DNA of 32,000 nucleotides from Buchnera aphidicola (Neophyllaphis podocarpi) (GCF_964059055.1 NZ_OZ060386.1:420001-452000), one strand, 5' to 3'; shown: positions 141-22,239, numbered from the stretch's first letter. The notes: generated by a model not told the origin, from the sequence alone. Numbers and translations are program-made.

Positions 141-1132
141 ATGACAAATTATATAAATAGCATAGAATTTTATAAAAACGCTTTTTTTAAAAAAAATTTT
201 TATTTTTTAATAGGTAATGAAACTAAAGTTACGCAGGAAATCACAGAAAAAATAATTTTAAATTGTAACAAAAAAAATTTTAACAAAATTAAAAACTTCT
301 ATGTAGAAGATCATAAAATTTTTAATAAAATATTTTATAAAATTCATGAACAAGATTTTTTAGAAAAAAAACAAATTATAATAATCAAAACTGATATAAA
401 GTCATTTAGCATAAAGATAAAAAAAAAATTCAACACTTAGTATCAATAAAAAATAAAAACATAATATGTATTATTTTTTTTGAAAAAAATATATTAAATA
501 ATAAAAATTATTTAGAAATGTTAAAAACAAATCAAGACATAGTTTTTATAAAATGCAATAAACCCAAAATAAACGAATTATATGAATGGATTAAATTTAA
601 ATCTAAAAAACTAAAAATAAAAATTAGCAAGATAAATCATGAGTTAATAATAAAAAATTATATAGATAACTTTACAGGTTTAATTAATTTTATAAATATA
701 ATATCTCTTATATGGCCAAATAAAAAAATAAATAGAAAAAAAATTCAACAAATTATAGAATGTGAAAATAGATTTACATACTCACAATGGATTAATTATA
801 TTATTAAAGGAAACCAAGAAAAAACTATAAAAATTCTACAATATTTTAAAATACAAAATTATAGTCCGGTAATATTAATTAGAGTATTACAAAATTTTAT
901 ATTAAATATTATAAATTTAAAAAGAAAAACTAAATATTGTATTTATGAAAATTATTTAAACAAAAATATTTTAACAAAAAATAATAATTTAGAAGAAAAA
1001 TCAAAAAAAATAAATAATAAAAAATTATATAATTCAATAAAATTAATAAGTTTAATAGAATTAAAAATCAAAAGAAATTTTAAGAAAAATGTTTGGTTAG
1101 AACTAATTAATTTATCATTAACATTATGTTAA
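141..1132 (+). pseudogene. holA: DNA polymerase III delta subunit (HolA), interrupted by a single frameshift in an A10 run at 419-428; possibly still expressed through slippage
   Basis: ORF 141-440 (frame 3) matches the HolA N-terminus (FYFLIGNETKVTQE vs E. coli YLLLGNDPLLLQES). ORF 518-1132 (frame 2) matches the C-terminal two thirds (LIWPNKKI / SPVILIRVLQNFILNIINLKRK / VWLELINLSLTLC vs LLWPDGKL / EPVILLRTLQRELLLLVNLKRQ / VWAELEGLSLLLC). I read frame 2 as stop-free from 410, so the two frames overlap across the A10 tract. One added A gives a continuous product of about 330 aa. Confidence 0.85.
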
Positions 1133-7238: not shown

Positions 7239-10200
7239 ATGTTTAATATATATTATTCTAATCAATTAAATATTCTAATTAAAAAAATAGATAAAGTTAT
7301 TAAAAAAACACCAGCAAAAAATTTATTAAAACCTGAAATTATATTAGTTCCTAGTACAAAATTAATACAACCAATACAAATACTAATAACTAAACATATA
7401 GGAATATGCGCTAATATAGAAATTATGTTATTTAAAAATTTTTTGTTAAAATATTTTAACATATTTTTTTTTAAAAGAATATTTTTGGATGATGAATTAC
7501 TAACATGGAAATTGTTTTCTTTAAATAATTTTAAAAAAATAGTAAAAGATAATAAAGAAATAAAAGAAAAAGAAATTATAAATTATGAATTACAAAATTT
7601 TAGCTTAGCAAAATATATAGCAAAATTATTCAAACAATACATGTTATATGATCCTTTATTTTTAGAAAAAATATCAAACAAAAAAAAAATAAATAGTCAA
7701 TATATATGGCAAATAAAATTATGGAAATGTATTTTTAATAAAAAAAATAAAAACAATAAAGAATCATTTAATACATATAATTTTTTTGAAAAAGAGATTT
7801 TAAAGTCTAAAAAAAATAAATTAATTCCTAAAAGATTTTTTTTATGTTGTATAAATTTTTTAGAACCTATTTATATTATAATATTAAAAATTTTAAATAA
7901 GTATAGTGATATTTATATACTAATTAGTAATAGCATTTTTTATAACAAAAAAACTACTAATTTTACAGAAAGTAAGATCAAAGGAAAAATATTTAAAACA
8001 ATTTCATTAGTAGAACAGAACAAAAATATATTTATATCTAAATTAAAATGTAAAAATATAAAAGAAAAGAAATTCTTCATAAGAACAGAAAAAAATATCT
8101 TAAATACAATTAAAAAAGAAATTTTAAATAAAAAATTTAATTCTTTATTTAATGGTAATAACATAAACAAAAAAGAGATAAAAGAAAATAATACTATAGA
8201 ACTTGAAGATAGTTCTTTTTGTGTAAAAGCAACAAATAATATAAGAGAAGAAATAGAAAAATTATATGAAAATATTAAAAAAATTTTAAATAAAAAAAAC
8301 GATATTTTACCACATGAAATTATTGTGATGAGCAATAATATTAAAAAATACTCTCATATTATAAAATCAGTTTTTAAAAAAAACTTTAAAGTTAAAATTA
8401 TAGATGAAAAATTTAGTGATAAAAGTATATTATTTAATAATTTTTATAAGTTAATGAAATTAGGAGATAGTCAACTATCTAATATTCAAATAATTGAGTT
8501 TTTAGAAATGGATAGTATTTCAAAAAAATTTAAAATTAATCAAGAAGAATATAAATTATTATATAAATGGATAAAAGAATTAGGTGTACAATGGGGTTTT
8601 GATCAAAAGCATATAAACAAAAAAATTAATTTAAAAAATATAAATATTAATACATGGAAAGTAGGAATCAAAAAAATTTTATTAGGATATGCTATGGATC
8701 AAGATAATATATTTGATAATATAATACCTTATTATGAACCTAATAATTTGTTTAATAGGTTAATTGAAAAGTTTATAATTTTATTGATAAAATTAAACAA
8801 ATGGCGAAAAATTTTTCAAAAACCCAAAACAATAAAATATTGGATAAAAAAATATCAAAAATTTACTAGTGATTTCTTTGATAAAAAAGAAGATTCAAAA
8901 AAAGAACTAAAACTTATAGAAAAAACTTGGAAAAAAATTTTGTATAATGGACTAAAATCCAAAAATAAAGATAAAATATCAATTAATCTATTAAGAGAAG
9001 AAATATTAAATAATATAAATAAAAAATCAAATAATCATATAATAGATGGTTCAATATGTTTTAGTAATATAAATTATTTAAGCTATTTTCCTTTTAAAGT
9101 TGTTTGTATAATAGGTCTAAATCAAAAATTTTTTATCAAAACAACAATTAAAAATAAATATTATTTTTTAGTAGATTCAATTAAAAAAATAAATAATAAC
9201 TTAAATTATTTAAATTATAATAAAATATTTTTTTTAAATTCATTGATATCTGCACAAAAAATATTTTACATTAGTTACATAAAAAAAAACTCTCAGAATA
9301 TAATAAATACTACTTCAGTATTAAATAAATTAATAAATTATATAAAATATAAATTTTATATAAAGAAAAAATCATTAAAAGAAAATAAAATAAAAAAAAT
9401 TAACACAAAAAAAATAAATAAAATAAGCAAAAAAAATATATGTTATAAAAATAAATATTTAATAGAAAAACAATTCTATAATATAGAACAAATTGAAAAA
9501 AAAATATCTTTTAAAAATCTGTTAAAATTTTGGAAAAATCCAATACGTTTCTTTTTTAATTATAGATTACAAATTAAAAATTTTTATCAAATAGAAAACT
9601 TATATGAAAATGAAATATTTCAACCAAATAATCTAGATATTTATAAAATCAACACAGAGATCTTAGATAAAATTTTATATAAAAAAGATATAAATATACT
9701 TTTTAAAAAATATAAAACAAACAATCAATTACCAATAGGTAAATTTGGTGAAATAATATGGAACAAACAAATAAAAGAAATGGAACAAATAGCACAAAAA
9801 ATAAATAATTATGTAGATATCAATACAGAAAAATACATAAATTCAGAAATTAAGTTACTAAGGATCGAAAATAATTATTTAAAAACATATAAAACAGGAT
9901 TAGTACGCTGGAGACCAGGTATATTAAATATATATGACGGATTATCTTTATGGCTAGAACATCTTGTGTATTGTCTTTCAGGAGGATTAGGAAATAGTAT
10001 TTTTATTGGACAAAAAAATACAAAATGGTATTTTTCAAATATAAATAAAGAAATAGCTTTTAAGAATTTAAAAAAATATATTAAAGGATATAAAGAAGGT
10101 TTAATGACACCAATCCTATTAACAAAATCTGGAGAAAAATGGTTAAGTACTATATATAATACTAAGAATAATAGTTTATCGAAAAATAATCAAGTACATA

Positions 10201-10388
10201 AAAAAGCAGAAAAAAATTTATTAAATACGTGGTTTGGAAATTTTATAATATATGGAGAAAGAGAAGATATATATATTAGTAAAATTATAAATAAAATAGA
10301 TGATTACTATATAAATAAAATATGTAGTGCATCAAAAAAATGGTTAATGCCAATTTTAAAAAATAATACTAACTTAAAAATAAACTAA
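7239..10388 (+). CDS. recC: Exodeoxyribonuclease V gamma subunit (RecC)
   Basis: The ORF is an uninterrupted 1049 aa. Its N-terminus MFNIYYSNQLNIL resembles E. coli MLRVYHSNRLDVL. Its size, and its position directly upstream of recB-recD, fit RecC. It contains an in-frame A10 run at 7680-7689. Confidence 0.85.
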   Translation: MFNIYYSNQLNILIKKIDKVIKKTPAKNLLKPEIILVPSTKLIQPIQILITKHIGICANIEIMLFKNFLLKYFNIFFFKRIFLDDELLTWKLFSLNNFKKIVKDNKEIKEKEIINYELQNFSLAKYIAKLFKQYMLYDPLFLEKISNKKKINSQYIWQIKLWKCIFNKKNKNNKESFNTYNFFEKEILKSKKNKLIPKRFFLCCINFLEPIYIIILKILNKYSDIYILISNSIFYNKKTTNFTESKIKGKIFKTISLVEQNKNIFISKLKCKNIKEKKFFIRTEKNILNTIKKEILNKKFNSLFNGNNINKKEIKENNTIELEDSSFCVKATNNIREEIEKLYENIKKILNKKNDILPHEIIVMSNNIKKYSHIIKSVFKKNFKVKIIDEKFSDKSILFNNFYKLMKLGDSQLSNIQIIEFLEMDSISKKFKINQEEYKLLYKWIKELGVQWGFDQKHINKKINLKNININTWKVGIKKILLGYAMDQDNIFDNIIPYYEPNNLFNRLIEKFIILLIKLNKWRKIFQKPKTIKYWIKKYQKFTSDFFDKKEDSKKELKLIEKTWKKILYNGLKSKNKDKISINLLREEILNNINKKSNNHIIDGSICFSNINYLSYFPFKVVCIIGLNQKFFIKTTIKNKYYFLVDSIKKINNNLNYLNYNKIFFLNSLISAQKIFYISYIKKNSQNIINTTSVLNKLINYIKYKFYIKKKSLKENKIKKINTKKINKISKKNICYKNKYLIEKQFYNIEQIEKKISFKNLLKFWKNPIRFFFNYRLQIKNFYQIENLYENEIFQPNNLDIYKINTEILDKILYKKDINILFKKYKTNNQLPIGKFGEIIWNKQIKEMEQIAQKINNYVDINTEKYINSEIKLLRIENNYLKTYKTGLVRWRPGILNIYDGLSLWLEHLVYCLSGGLGNSIFIGQKNTKWYFSNINKEIAFKNLKKYIKGYKEGLMTPILLTKSGEKWLSTIYNTKNNSLSKNNQVHKKAEKNLLNTWFGNFIIYGEREDIYISKIINKIDDYYINKICSASKKWLMPILKNNTNLKIN

Positions 10389-10391
10389 TAA

Positions 10392-13300
10392 ATGCAAAAG
10401 AAAATAGATATAATAAATATCAATATTAATGAAGATATGATAATTGAATCATCAGCAGGAACAGGTAAAACTCATGCTATATCATTAATATATTTAAAAT
10501 TATTATTAGGTATAGATTATCCTAAAAGTTTACCAGTAGAAAAAATTTTAATTATAACATTTACTAATTTAGCTGTAGATGAGCTAAAAAAAAGAATTAA
10601 AAATAATGTATATGAATTAAAACTAGCTTGCTTTAAAAAAAAAGTAATATTAAAGAAATAAATGAACTATTCAAAAAAATAAAAGATATAAAAAAAGCTA
10701 TATCTTTACTGACAAAAGCAGAAAATACATTAGATAATTCTTCAATATATACAATACATTCATTTTGCAAGAAAATATTAGAAATAGATATATTTCAACA
10801 TGAATATATAACTACTAATAATAGAATTATTTATAATGAAGAAGAGATATATGAAACTGCAACAACAGACTTCTGGAGAGAAAATTTTTATAATTTATCT
10901 ACTTCATTAACTAATATTATACATACAGAAATCAAAAATCCTAAAAAGCTATTAAATAATATAAAACCTTATTTAAATAATACTTATGTAGATATAAAAT
11001 ATCCTAATTATACAAAATATCAAATAAAATATATAAATAAAAAAATATTATCTAATATAAATATTTTTAAAAAATATTGGATAGACAACGAACTAATTTT
11101 AATAAAAAATATAATATCAAAAATAAAAAATAAATTTTATAAAAAAACTATTATAAACTATTCAAAAAAAATCTCTAATTGGGTAAAAAATGATGTTTTA
11201 TATTATAAAATACCTAAAGAATTAGAATATTTCTCAATAAAAGAAATAAGTAAAAAAAATAAAATTATTAATAGTGAAGAATTATTTTTTTTAAAAAATA
11301 TAGAAAATTTTCTAAAAAAACCTATATTTCTAATAGATATTATATATGCTAAATCTATCAAAGAAATAAGGAAAAAAATAAAAGAAATTAAAAAACAAAT
11401 TTCATTAATAGAATTTAGTGACATAGTAAGATTATCAAAATATATATTAAAAAATAAAAATAAATCAAAAAATATCTTAAAATATATAAGAAAAATATAT
11501 CCAATAGCTATAGTTGATGAATTTCAAGATACAGATAATGAACAAAATATAATTTTAAAAGAAATATATATTAATAGTAAAAATGTTATATTAATATTAG
11601 TAGGAGATCCAAAACAATCTATATATAATTTTAGAGGAAGTAATATATTTAATTATTTCAATATAAAATCAAAAATCAAAAACCATTATTATTTAAATAA
11701 TAATTGGAGATCATCAAAAAGCATGATAAGTAGTATAAACTATTTATTTTCAAGAATAAAAAAACCTTTTTTTATAAAAGAATTAGAGTTTATTCCAGTA
11801 AAATATACTAAAAATAGTAATAAAATAAAAATAGAAGTAAATAATAAAGAATATTCTGCTTTAAAAATTTGGATGTATAAAAATTGCAAAACAAATATAA
11901 AAGAATATACTGAATGGTCATCAAAAATATGTGCTAAAGAAATAAATTATTTATTACAAAAAAGTATTGAAGGTAAGGCTATATTAAAAAAAGGAAAAGT
12001 AACAAAAAAAATAAAAGAAAAAGATATAGTTATATTAGTTAGTAACAAAAACGAAGCTTTAAAAATACAACAAGCTATGAATAAATACAATATAAATACA
12101 TTATATTTATCAGAAAAAAATAGCGTATTTTCAACATTAGAAGCAAAAGAAATATTATGGATATTACAAGCTTTAGCTAATCCCCCTTCAAAAAAATTTA
12201 TAAATCAAGTATTACTTTCTAGTATTTTTCAAAATAAAATAAAATCTTTAGACAAATATGATAATAATAAAAAATATAATTATCAGAATTTAGCTAAAAA
12301 GCTTTATAAATATAAAATTATATGGAATACACTAGGAATATTAGAACTAATAAAAAATTTAATAGAGTACATGTTAAAAAATAATTTAAATAAACATTTT
12401 ATATCAAAACAAAAAATAAATAATTTTTTACATTTAGGAGAATTAATTCAAAAAAAATCTGAAAAAATTAAAAATAAAACTTATTTAATATATTGGATTC
12501 AAAGAAAAATAACAAATACAAAAAAAATAAAAGAAGAAGAAATTATAAAAAACAATGATTTAAATTCTGTAGTTATTAATACCATACATAAATCTAAAGG
12601 AATGCAATATCCTATAGTATGGTTTCCTTTTGCTATTAATTTTCTAAAAGTTCAAAATGGAACTTATTATAATCCAAAAACTAAAAAAAATACTTTAAAT
12701 TTCAAAGTTACAAAAAAAAATATCAATAAACATATAAATGAAATGATGTCAGAAAAATTAAGATTAATATATGTAGCATTAACAAGATCAATATGGCACT
12801 GTAGTTTGAGTATATCACAAGAATTAATCAATGATAAAAATATAAAATATTATAAAAAGTACAATATAAAATATTCTAGCCCTATAGGTTATTTGCTAAA
12901 AAATAATAAAGATTTAACAATTAATGAAACAATTAATAAATTAATAAGAAAAAAAAATAGCAATATAGAAATATTAACAAATAATTTATATAAAAAAGAA
13001 AAAATTACAGAAATTAAATCAGATATGATAGATTTTAAAAAAACAAATACTGATATAAATTTAATAAAAAAAGAAAAATGGAGTATTTTAAGCTATTCAA
13101 ATATAAAAAAAAATAATAAATTAGAGTTTAATAATAAAAAATTAAATAAAAATATAAAAAATAAAAATAATTTAACAATTAAAAACTTTCCTCAAGGATT
13201 AAATACTGGTTTATTAATGCATGAAATTCTAAAAAAAATAAACTTTAAACAAAAAATAAAAATAAAACTAATACATCAAATATTAAAAAAATACAATTTT

Positions 13301-13876
13301 AATTATAAATGGTTAAATATAGTTTTACAATGGACTAAATATATTTTAAATAAAAAATTAAATATTAAAAATTTATATCTATGTAAAATTAAAGAAGAAA
13401 ATTTAATAAAAGAATTAAACTTTTATTTGCTTATAAAAAATAGAATAACTGAAATAAAGTTTAATGAAGTAATTAAAAAATTTGATAATATATCAAATGC
13501 TTCTAAAAATATAAAATTTACTGATACAAAAGGAATTTTTTACGGAAAAATTGATCTAATATTTAAGTGGAGTAAAAAATATTATATTCTTGATTACAAA
13601 TCAAACTGGATAGGAGAAAACAATCAAAATTATAAATTTGATTATTTAATTAAAGAGATAAAAAAATATAGATATGATATACAATATCACATATATAGTT
13701 TAGCTCTACATAGATATTTAAAAAGTAAAATAAAAAAATATGATTTCAAAAAATATTTTGGAGGTATATTTTACTTCTTTATAAGAGCAGCTAAAAGTAA
13801 AAATATAAAAGAAGGGATATTCTATAAAATACCTGAAGAAAATTTAATTAAAAGTTTAGATAAATTATTTGATTAA
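10392..13876 (+). pseudogene. recB: Exodeoxyribonuclease V beta subunit (RecB helicase-nuclease), interrupted by a single frameshift in an A9 run at 10635-10643
   Basis: ORF 10392-10661 (frame 3) carries the RecB N-terminus and Walker A motif (ESSAGTGKTHAI; ITFTNLAVDELKKRI). I translated frame 2 by hand from 10637 to the listed ORF 11723-13876 and found no stop. That stretch encodes SSIYTIHSFCKKIL, AIVDEFQDTD, LVGDPKQSIYNFRG and NNWRSS. The downstream ORF has TIHKSKGMQYPIVW, LIYVALTRS and the nuclease motif GKIDLIFKWSKKYYILDYKSN. One added A in the tract gives about 1161 aa. Confidence 0.88.
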
Positions 13877-15672
13877 TGAAAAACACAAAGATAATAAAAT
13901 TATTAAAACAAGCAGCTAAAAAATCAATAATTAATTATATTGATATATATTTTGCCGAATCTATATGTAATATAGAAAATAAAAAAATATTCATATCTAT
14001 AGTATGTTTAAGTCATAATTTTCAAAAAGGAAATAGTTGTTTACCTATTAGTAAAATAAATCCAAAATTATTTAATAATAATAATTTAATAAAAAAAATA
14101 TTTGATATTATAGGAAATAATATAAATTGGAATTTAAAACTGAAAAGCAGCAAAATAATTGGTGATAAAAAAAATTTTCTTAATAAACCAATTATTTTAA
14201 ATAATAAAAAACTATATCTAAATAAAATTTGGAAAGAAGAAGTACAAATTTTTGAATTTATAAAAAAAAATATTAATATAAATACAAAAATAAATAATAA
14301 AAAATATAATAAAATTATATATAAATTATCTAATAATGAAAATTATGATTTAACACAAAAAAAAGCTATTAGCATGGCCTTAAAACGTAAAATAACATTT
14401 ATTATAGGAGGGCCTGGAACAGGAAAAACAACTACTATATTTACAATATTAAAATATTTTATAAAACTATCAAAACCAAATACAAAAATAAAACTATTAG
14501 CTCCAACAGGTAAAGCAACTTTTAGATTAAAAGAATCTATAAAAAATTCTATTAAACTAGATAAATTATTAAATAAACAAATAATAAATTATAAAATAGA
14601 AACTATACATAAATTTTTAGAAAAAAATAAAAAAAATGAAAAAGAAAATATAATAAACAAAAAAAAAGAATTTTTAAATATCATAGATTTAATTATTATA
14701 GATGAATCTTCTATGGTTGATTCATATATAATGAGTAAATTACTAAACATAATAAATAGGGATACTAAAATAATATTTGTTGGAGATCCTAATCAATTAT
14801 ACCCTGTCAAACATGGATCATTTTTAAAAGATGTATCTTATTTTTACAATATAACAAAAAAACAAAATAATAATTTTATAAGAAACAATATATGTAAATT
14901 AAAAGAAAATTATAGATTTTCATCTAAATCTGATATTCACAATTTAGCAGTAGCAATATATAAAAAAGAAATACATAAAATATATAAAATAATAAATAAA
15001 AAAAATAGTAAAATTATTTTTTTTGATGTTAAATCAGATTATGAATATAATAATATGATCATAAAAATAGTAAATAACTATAAATTATACTGGTTATCTG
15101 TAAAAAATGAATTAAATCCAAAAAAAATTATTAAAATATTTAATCAAAACAAAGTATTATGTATGATGAGAATAGGAAAACTAGGAATAAAAAAAATAAA
15201 TAAAAAAATAGAAAAACAAATGATGAATGAAAATATTATTCAATATGACAAAATTAATGATTGGTATATAGGAAAACCTATAATGATAATCAAAAATAAC
15301 AATGAACTAAAATTGTCAAATGGAGATATTGGAATAACAATTAAAGATAAAAACAAAGAAATGAGCGTATGTTTTATTAAAAATAATAATATTAAAAAAG
15401 TAAAAACATATTTAATTAATGAATATGAAACAGCATGGGCTATAACTGTACATAAATCACAAGGTTCTGAATTTGAAAATATATCACTAATTATTCCGGA
15501 AAAATTTTCTAATTTTTTAACAAAAGAATTAATTTTCACAGCAGTAACAAGAGCAAAAAAAACTGTATCGATTTATTCAAGAAAAAAAATATTAAATAAA
15601 ATTATAAACAATGAAGGAAGAAGAGATAGTGGAATGGTGGAAAAATTTTTATATTTAAATAAAAGAAAATAA
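13876..15672 (+). CDS. recD: Exodeoxyribonuclease V alpha subunit (RecD helicase)
   Basis: The 598-aa ORF has Walker A GGPGTGKTTT, motif IIIDESSMVD, VGDPNQL, and C-terminal TVHKSQGSEF...FTAVTRAKK. Its start ATG overlaps the recB stop (TAATG at 13874-13878). Confidence 0.92.
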   Translation: MKNTKIIKLLKQAAKKSIINYIDIYFAESICNIENKKIFISIVCLSHNFQKGNSCLPISKINPKLFNNNNLIKKIFDIIGNNINWNLKLKSSKIIGDKKNFLNKPIILNNKKLYLNKIWKEEVQIFEFIKKNININTKINNKKYNKIIYKLSNNENYDLTQKKAISMALKRKITFIIGGPGTGKTTTIFTILKYFIKLSKPNTKIKLLAPTGKATFRLKESIKNSIKLDKLLNKQIINYKIETIHKFLEKNKKNEKENIINKKKEFLNIIDLIIIDESSMVDSYIMSKLLNIINRDTKIIFVGDPNQLYPVKHGSFLKDVSYFYNITKKQNNNFIRNNICKLKENYRFSSKSDIHNLAVAIYKKEIHKIYKIINKKNSKIIFFDVKSDYEYNNMIIKIVNNYKLYWLSVKNELNPKKIIKIFNQNKVLCMMRIGKLGIKKINKKIEKQMMNENIIQYDKINDWYIGKPIMIIKNNNELKLSNGDIGITIKDKNKEMSVCFIKNNNIKKVKTYLINEYETAWAITVHKSQGSEFENISLIIPEKFSNFLTKELIFTAVTRAKKTVSIYSRKKILNKIINNEGRRDSGMVEKFLYLNKRK

Positions 15673-21960: not shown

Positions 21961-22239
21961 ATGAAAAAAATAAACAAAATATTAACAGTAACATCTATTC
22001 TTAAAAATGAAATTATTTTAGATATACGATCTGAAGAAGAAAGAGAAAAATTTCCATTAAAAATAAAAAAACAAAAAATAAAATACATGTCTTTTTATAA
22101 TTTACATAAAAATTTTAAAAATTTAGACCAAAAAAAAACATGGTTATTATACTGTAATAGAGGAGTAATGAGTAAAATACAAGCAATATATTTATATGAA
22201 TTAGGTTTTAAAAATATAAAAATATATAAAATTAATTAA
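21961..22239 (+). CDS. thiI: Stand-alone rhodanese domain homologous to the C-terminal domain of tRNA sulfurtransferase ThiI
   Basis: The 92-aa ORF LDIRSEEEREKFPL...LDQKKTWLLYCNRGVMSKIQAIYLYELGFKNIKIY aligns with the E. coli ThiI C-terminus (IDIRSIDEQEDKPL...[35 protein letters not shown]), including the persulfide Cys. It sits divergent from ispA, as thiI does in E. coli. The 118-bp upstream spacer has no room for the THUMP and PP-loop domains. Confidence 0.85.
   Translation: MKKINKILTVTSILKNEIILDIRSEEEREKFPLKIKKQKIKYMSFYNLHKNFKNLDQKKTWLLYCNRGVMSKIQAIYLYELGFKNIKIYKIN

Follow-up and report, generated by a model that had tools for sequence, protein, structure and literature searches.

A conserved frameshift in a poly(A) tract of recB in Buchnera from Neophyllaphis, probably tolerated through slippage at the tract

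The recB gene of Buchnera aphidicola (Neophyllaphis podocarpi) was characterized in a window of 32,000 nucleotides (GCF_964059055.1, NZ_OZ060386.1:420001-452000) and was found by direct reading of the sequence to be broken at a run of nine adenines (A9) at 10635-10643. Positions are counted from the first base of the window, which is the whole stretch of DNA analysed, and recB and its neighbours recC and recD all lie on its plus strand. The lesion is probably a genomic one-base deletion, A10 to A9, within a lysine-coding poly(A) tract. We read it as an ancestral deletion that has been tolerated, with the frame probably restored in some products through +1 slippage of RNA polymerase, to which -1 slippage of ribosomes may add, and we assign this reading a probability of roughly 70%. 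Purifying selection acts on recB before and after the tract as strongly as on the intact neighbouring genes and, therefore, a full-length RecB of 1161 amino acids is probably still made.

The 5' segment of recB is read in frame 3 and the 3' segment in frame 2. The frame-3 open reading frame (ORF) (10392..10661) encodes 89 amino acids. Its first part (10392..10643) holds RecB codons 1-84 with the Walker A motif GTGKT (10458-10472), and this 5' piece is matched by positions 11-72 of the Pfam UvrD-helicase profile. Across the break, frame 3 reads GCT TGC TTT AAA AAA AAA GTA ATA TTA AAG AAA TAA, and the truncated peptide ends in an out-of-frame tail, VILKK followed by TAA at 10659-61 (10644..10661). 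In frame 2, direct reading and translation placed a TAA at 10634..10636, directly before the frame opens at 10637; it then remains open for 1079 codons, with no internal stop, as far as the stop codon at 13874-76. RecB codons 85-1161 occupy 10643..13876, and Pfam assigned to this 3' piece UvrD-helicase positions 61-270, UvrD_C and a weak PD-(D/E)XK match. Over the span of the open frame 2, the remaining two frames contain 157 and 156 stops and stay open for at most 32 and 26 codons, respectively. A preliminary description of this DNA had placed the split in the A9 run, the frame-3 stop at 10659-61 and an open frame 2 from 10637 to 13876; these coordinates held on reading and translation.

The A9 run alone is not beyond chance, and the non-random part of the locus is the collinear open frame of 1079 codons. 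The window, whose G+C content is roughly 14-26%, contains 32 A9 matches compared to 62 +/- 12.5 in dinucleotide-preserving shuffles, and its longest A runs are two A10 runs, none exceeding 10. The first 362 codons of frame 2 of recB (10637-11722) include no ATG, GTG or TTG and, for that reason, a mechanical ORF listing gives only 11723..13876. The missing canonical starts reflect extreme AT-biased codon use.

Insertion of one A at the tract gave a 1161-codon frame without any other stop and with the junction ...ELKLACFKKKSNIKEINELFKK... The repaired protein aligned with Escherichia coli RecB (1w36_B) over residues 5-1160 against 8-1172 (E 6e-191). The alignment was free of gaps at the lysine-rich junction, which is spanned by the peptide LKLACFKKKSNIKE, and the collinearity proposed in the preliminary description was thereby borne out. 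The recB equivalog model TIGR00609 scored the repaired protein at 858.5 bits (cutoff 696) over profile positions 2-1175 of 1175; the stricter model PRK10876 was not reached (913.7 vs. a cutoff of 1697). The SF1 helicase motif set was complete, with each motif aligned to its E. coli counterpart. In addition to Walker A in frame 3, the set comprises, in frame 2, DEFQDTD (11516), GDPKQSIYNFRG (11603), TIHKSKG (12581) and VALTRS (12773). A further helicase motif in frame 2 is TIHSFC (10751). The nuclease motif, GKIDL (13544) ... LDYKSN (13589), lies at 13544-13606, also in frame 2, and PF12705 matched the C-terminal PD-(D/E)XK nuclease with an E of 4.3e-4 and 20.7 bits, just under its gathering score of 22. 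The preservation of DEFQDTD, GDPKQSIYNFRG, TIHKSKG, VALTRS and GKIDL...LDYKSN had been claimed earlier, and all were found. The gene order is recC-recB-recD, and both neighbours directly flank recB. What this recB lacks is a single uninterrupted reading frame, the frame changing at A9 10635-10643.

The recB locus was compared among the window and two further assemblies, CP135039.1 (N. podocarpi; L001) and CP135042.1 (N. varicolor; L002), both sequenced by Illumina NovaSeq 2x150 (PMC11193766). The junction, with A9 and the frameshift, was base-for-base the same in all three genomes, and recB was 3485 nucleotides long in each. At the nucleotide level, recB of the window is 95.75% identical to that of L001 and 99.3% identical to that of L002, and dS (the synonymous divergence) among the three genomes was up to about 0.14. 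The lesion is not recent, since it is identical in genomes this far apart. The preliminary description had called it recent or tolerated; the first of these terms can be dropped, whereas the second is upheld by dN/dS values (ratios of nonsynonymous to synonymous divergence) like those of intact genes and by the lack of stops and indels. Judging from the shared junction, the deletion probably predates the split of the three sequenced Neophyllaphis strains and was present in their common ancestor.

The state of the tract before the deletion is suggested by other Buchnera. In most Buchnera, RecB has C-[IF]-[NK]-K-K-[SN] at this site, and the codons at the homologous site of Taiwanaphis Buchnera, whose recB is intact, are TGT TTT TAT AAA AAA AGT AAT AAC AAA GAA ATA AAT, that is, CFYKKSNNKEIN, which the junction of the repaired protein matches (CFYKKS at the core). 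The in-frame Neophyllaphis form would be TTT AAA AAA AAA AGT, with A10, and the present tract is one A short of it.

Two explanations would remove the frameshift from the functional gene altogether. The first is a sequencing or assembly artefact, with a true genome of A10 and an intact recB. Homopolymers are the classic sites of miscalled length, and the depositor's protein record is full length, but an assembly error is very unlikely because the identical A9 would have to recur in three data sets. These come from at least two groups, and two of them are documented as Illumina 2x150. Moreover, the coding regions of the window contain 21 other A9 tracts and one A10 tract (A in the mRNA), none of which breaks the frame, which argues against general undercalling, and holA, described below, is a second conserved frameshift case. 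We give an artefact next to no weight.

The second is heteroplasmy of tract length, in which minority genome copies with A10 supply functional RecB while the consensus is A9. Buchnera is polyploid, with many genome copies per cell, and homopolymer length change was the dominant type of indel among the three genomes. Replication slippage in long tracts is also the accepted origin of such frameshifts (PMC5574713, PMC3017870). Even so, all three independent consensus assemblies have A9, and recurrent mutation would be required to keep a minority allele stable across a dS of about 0.14. No further copy of the site turned up when genome and metagenome collections were scanned with tracts of 7-12 allowed, and a search of genome contigs with the repaired RecB found no related locus, in collections that evidently do not contain these genomes. 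The chance that heteroplasmy accounts for recB function is slender.

Signs of decay were sought in the substitutions and indels that separate the three genomes. A three-way alignment of window positions 744-23873 with L001 and L002 contained 28 indel events, of which 25 fell in intergenic spacers totalling about 1.3-1.6 kb and none in recB. In the 1077 codons downstream of the tract, 706 of the 9693 possible single-base changes would create a stop. When the 136 observed substitutions were placed at random according to the observed spectrum, a mean of 9.2 stops resulted and none of 5000 simulations was free of stops; the actual number of stops is zero. Values of dN/dS were obtained by the Nei-Gojobori method, with a Fisher test of dN=dS. 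Upstream of the tract, recB had a dN/dS of 0.165 against L001 (Fisher p=0.003), and downstream of it the value was 0.169 against L001 (p 7e-23) and 0.128 against L002 (p 6e-6). Fifteen other genes, pooled, gave 0.178 and 0.164 against L001 and L002, respectively. The window-L002 comparison covers a short branch; the frameshift is present in both genomes and, by parsimony, was present in the ancestor that they share. Extra stops, indels or a dN/dS moving toward 1 were thus absent from recB in all three genomes, and recB is not decaying, given that it has no stops, no indels and a dN/dS matching that of its intact neighbours; the lesion is tolerated. The comparison of the segments before and after the tract proposed in the preliminary description therefore came out in favour of purifying selection on the downstream codons. 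From the tract to the first ATG, GTG or TTG there are 360 codons, for which dN/dS was 0.234 (p 6.5e-5). This stretch has no start codon and appears to be translated and, therefore, frame 2 is presumably entered at or near the tract.

The existing annotation of recB differs between databases. The depositor's protein CAL4324663.1, 'RecBCD enzyme subunit RecB', has 1161 amino acids and is identical, residue for residue, to the product of the one-A repair, and the frameshift had therefore already been recognised and bridged in the public record. RefSeq gives recB as two coding sequences (CDSs) of 89 and 1055 amino acids. The shorter, a 'UvrD-helicase domain protein' (WP_367676077.1), is identical to the frame-3 ORF. 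The longer, 'RecB', starts at CTG (10709..10711), a codon to which RefSeq resorted because frame 2 has no canonical start for 362 codons; with no Shine-Dalgarno-like sequence upstream of it, this CTG was probably chosen for the convenience of annotation and does not start translation. The depositor joins recB and RefSeq splits it, and gene-content and pseudogene counts in Buchnera hinge on the convention that is followed. Literature on a recB frameshift in Buchnera, or on the depositor's rule for annotating frameshifts, yielded nothing specific.

Taken at face value, the RefSeq annotation corresponds to a young pseudogene or a split gene; in a split gene, an 89-amino-acid N-fragment and a C-fragment begun at a non-canonical codon such as CTG 10709 would act separately or not at all. 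An independent nearby recB frameshift in CP032759.1 suggests that recB can be dispensable in some Buchnera lineages, consistent with this explanation. It is nevertheless highly improbable for Neophyllaphis Buchnera. Both fragments are under purifying selection as strong as that on intact genes, including along the short branch between the window and L002, and stops and indels are absent from the three genomes. In addition to the 362 codons without ATG, GTG or TTG and the want of a Shine-Dalgarno sequence at CTG 10709, a C-fragment would be without Walker A, and a split gene in which it acted alone would leave selection on the 84 upstream codons (dN/dS 0.165) unexplained.

The preferred reading, a tolerated deletion with correction at the tract, can be formulated as follows. 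RNA polymerase would slip backwards on the A9/T9 template and add one A in a fraction of transcripts. These A10 transcripts would be translated normally through ...CFKKKSNIKE... into full-length RecB, and uncorrected transcripts would yield a dead-end peptide of 89 amino acids. Ribosomes slipping by -1 on A_AAA_AAA would make the same full-length protein and may account for part of it. In Buchnera and Blochmannia genes with a frameshift at a long poly(A) run, transcriptional slippage corrects 12-50% of the transcripts (Tamas 2008, cited from PMC5009743), and another summary puts the share at about 30% (PMC3017870). Frameshifts of this kind are shared by different species in genes that have not degraded (PMC3017870). 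A genome-wide CirSeq study of Buchnera placed 151 of 157 transcription insertions in homopolymers; they were mostly of a single base and became exponentially more frequent as the runs lengthened, up to 11 nucleotides (PMC5574713). The insertion that recB needs is of this type, +1, as in the CirSeq single-base insertions.

A second gene in the window bears on whether correction operates in these bacteria. The holA gene (DNA polymerase III delta; window 141-1132) is split at an A10 run (419-428), where the frame of 141 changes to the frame of 143. Like recB, holA needs one additional A, and its repaired product is the depositor's 330-amino-acid CAL4324504.1. The 99-amino-acid N-fragment of holA is called in CP135042 and CP135039 too, and the gene is split in all three genomes. 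In E. coli, holA is essential. A conserved frameshift in an essential gene argues, therefore, that some correction operates in Neophyllaphis Buchnera.

The frame could instead be restored mainly at translation, by ribosomes with tRNA-Lys in the P and A sites that slip -1 on A_AAA_AAA and then read AGT. The heptamer, at 10637-10643, fits the X_XXY_YYZ pattern in the phase of frame 3, and its product, with the FKKKS junction, is identical to that of the one-A repair. Ribosomal frameshifting on A runs has long been known, and 'corrective' frameshifting in endosymbionts has been discussed (PMC5009743). However, a weak 9-bp AU hairpin, 39 nucleotides after the tract (-7.4 kcal/mol, z -2.1), is the sole downstream structure and not a convincing stimulator, and no Shine-Dalgarno-like element was found upstream of the tract (GCTTGCTTT). 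Published experiments on Buchnera and Blochmannia tracts credit transcription (PMC5009743, PMC3017870). Transcriptional slippage is favoured because the published rescue was attributed to transcription and because the recB tract has no ribosomal stimulator; translation as the main site of correction is unlikely.

Another proposal is that A9 is selectively kept as a throttle, with recB (and holA) deliberately expressed via rare slippage only, giving a very low, noise-driven dose of RecBCD and of the clamp loader relative to partners. We regard this as a long shot. Conservation of A9 was considered as a sign of selection on the tract and was rejected, as it is not significant: 16 of the 25 tracts of at least 9 nucleotides are uninterrupted in L001.

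This last result also weighs against the reading of a tolerated deletion corrected by slippage, as do several other points. We infer frame correction in recB from selection only. The A9 tract is near the short end of those with reported high slippage, and per-site slippage rates in Buchnera may fall well under 12-50%, which calls for caution on efficiency. The sequence alone does not separate transcriptional from ribosomal slippage. Lastly, two independent A10-to-A9 losses may have occurred, which would shorten the time that recB has spent frameshifted.

The genes that flank recB are intact, as had been described. The recC gene (exodeoxyribonuclease V gamma subunit; 7239..10388) encodes 1049 amino acids with Pfam matches to RecC_C and Exonuc_V_gamma and NCBIfam matches to PRK11069 (E 5.7e-175) and TIGR01450 (E 1.1e-132), and its dN/dS was 0.247 against L001. 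The recD gene (exodeoxyribonuclease V alpha subunit; 13876..15672) encodes 598 amino acids, and its start overlaps the recB stop. It matched RecD_N and AAA_19/AAA_30 in Pfam and scored 491.7 bits with TIGR01447 (cutoff 310), and its dN/dS was 0.159.

The three coding indels in the three-way alignment were in pgk (5114), recC (10375) and thiL (17449), each within roughly the last 15 nucleotides of the gene. The indels alter C-terminal tails (386 vs. 390 amino acids in pgk and 323 vs. 325 in thiL), and that in thiL is a homopolymer length change, A8 vs. A7. Long A runs in the window are depleted and capped in length, and 9 of the 25 tracts of at least 9 nucleotides are interrupted by substitutions in L001, suggesting that tracts turn over quickly. 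A stand-alone ORF of 92 amino acids (21961-22239, plus strand) corresponds to the C-terminal rhodanese domain of ThiI alone (TIGR04271, 106 bits); the ORF is kept in all three genomes with a dN/dS of 0.13 and looks like the one domain retained from a thiI that has otherwise been deleted.

Two further observations concern recB in other genomes. The window genome is labelled N. podocarpi, but its recB is nearer to that of N. varicolor CP135042 (99.3%) than to that of 'N. podocarpi' CP135039 (95.8%), which suggests host misidentification or a cryptic species in one of the data sets. In Buchnera CP032759.1, which has a genome of 642,929 bp, recB carries an independent frameshift at about 1519-1530, at ATAAAAATTTTGAC, and is annotated as CDSs of 110 and 1068 amino acids. 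The truncated 1068-amino-acid RecB of this other Buchnera was considered as a recurrence at the same tract and was ruled out, because the DNA site is about 15 codons downstream. It seems that recB has been hit repeatedly in its N-terminal lysine-rich linker, in the Neophyllaphis strains and in CP032759.1.

As a protein and as a locus, the repaired RecB resembles that of E. coli RecBCD (PDB 1W36), with a collinear sequence, the helicase and nuclease motifs and the recC-recB-recD order. It differs in being only about 30-40% identical, in its extreme Lys/Asn/Ile bias and in the interrupted frame of its gene. The tract itself can be compared with -1 ribosomal frameshifting of the E. coli dnaX type (A_AAA_AAG), with which it shares an in-phase lysine slippery heptamer and an identical expected product. 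The recB heptamer, however, ends in A and not in G, and neither a properly spaced stem-loop, about 5-9 nucleotides downstream, nor an upstream Shine-Dalgarno-like stimulator was found.

Transcriptional frameshifting in free-living bacteria likewise involves polymerase realignment on a run of 9-11 A and gives a mixture of truncated and full-length products. Interrupted genes are rescued in this way in Shigella mxiE and, at A9, in Thermus dnaX. In Citrobacter rodentium tssM, which has A11, the efficiency of transcriptional frameshifting is about 20-25% (PMC4256274). These cases differ from recB in that frameshifting was experimentally demonstrated and both products are sometimes used, whereas the 89-amino-acid product of recB shows no sign of a role.

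The closest likeness is with the poly(A) frameshifts of endosymbionts (Tamas et al., 2008 PNAS; Wernegreen et al., 2010 MBE; Blochmannia vafer, PMC3017870), which have a single-base indel in a long A tract within an otherwise intact gene of an AT-rich, reduced genome, are conserved across diverged lineages with normal rates, undergo +1 A correction and are annotated as intact by curators. The recB tract differs in having only 9 nucleotides and in being known here from its sequence, and neither recB nor Neophyllaphis Buchnera was among the described cases that were found. In recB the sole lesion is a single base in an A tract, the lesion is conserved and purifying selection persists downstream of it, as in that class. 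The recB frameshift is thus real but ordinary, an instance of well-described behaviour in Buchnera and Blochmannia that the depositor's annotation already bridges, and it opens no new question on endosymbiont frameshifts. Its value is as a cleanly documented case for the class of retained, read-through poly(A) frameshifts, with three genomes, selection after the frameshift and holA alongside.

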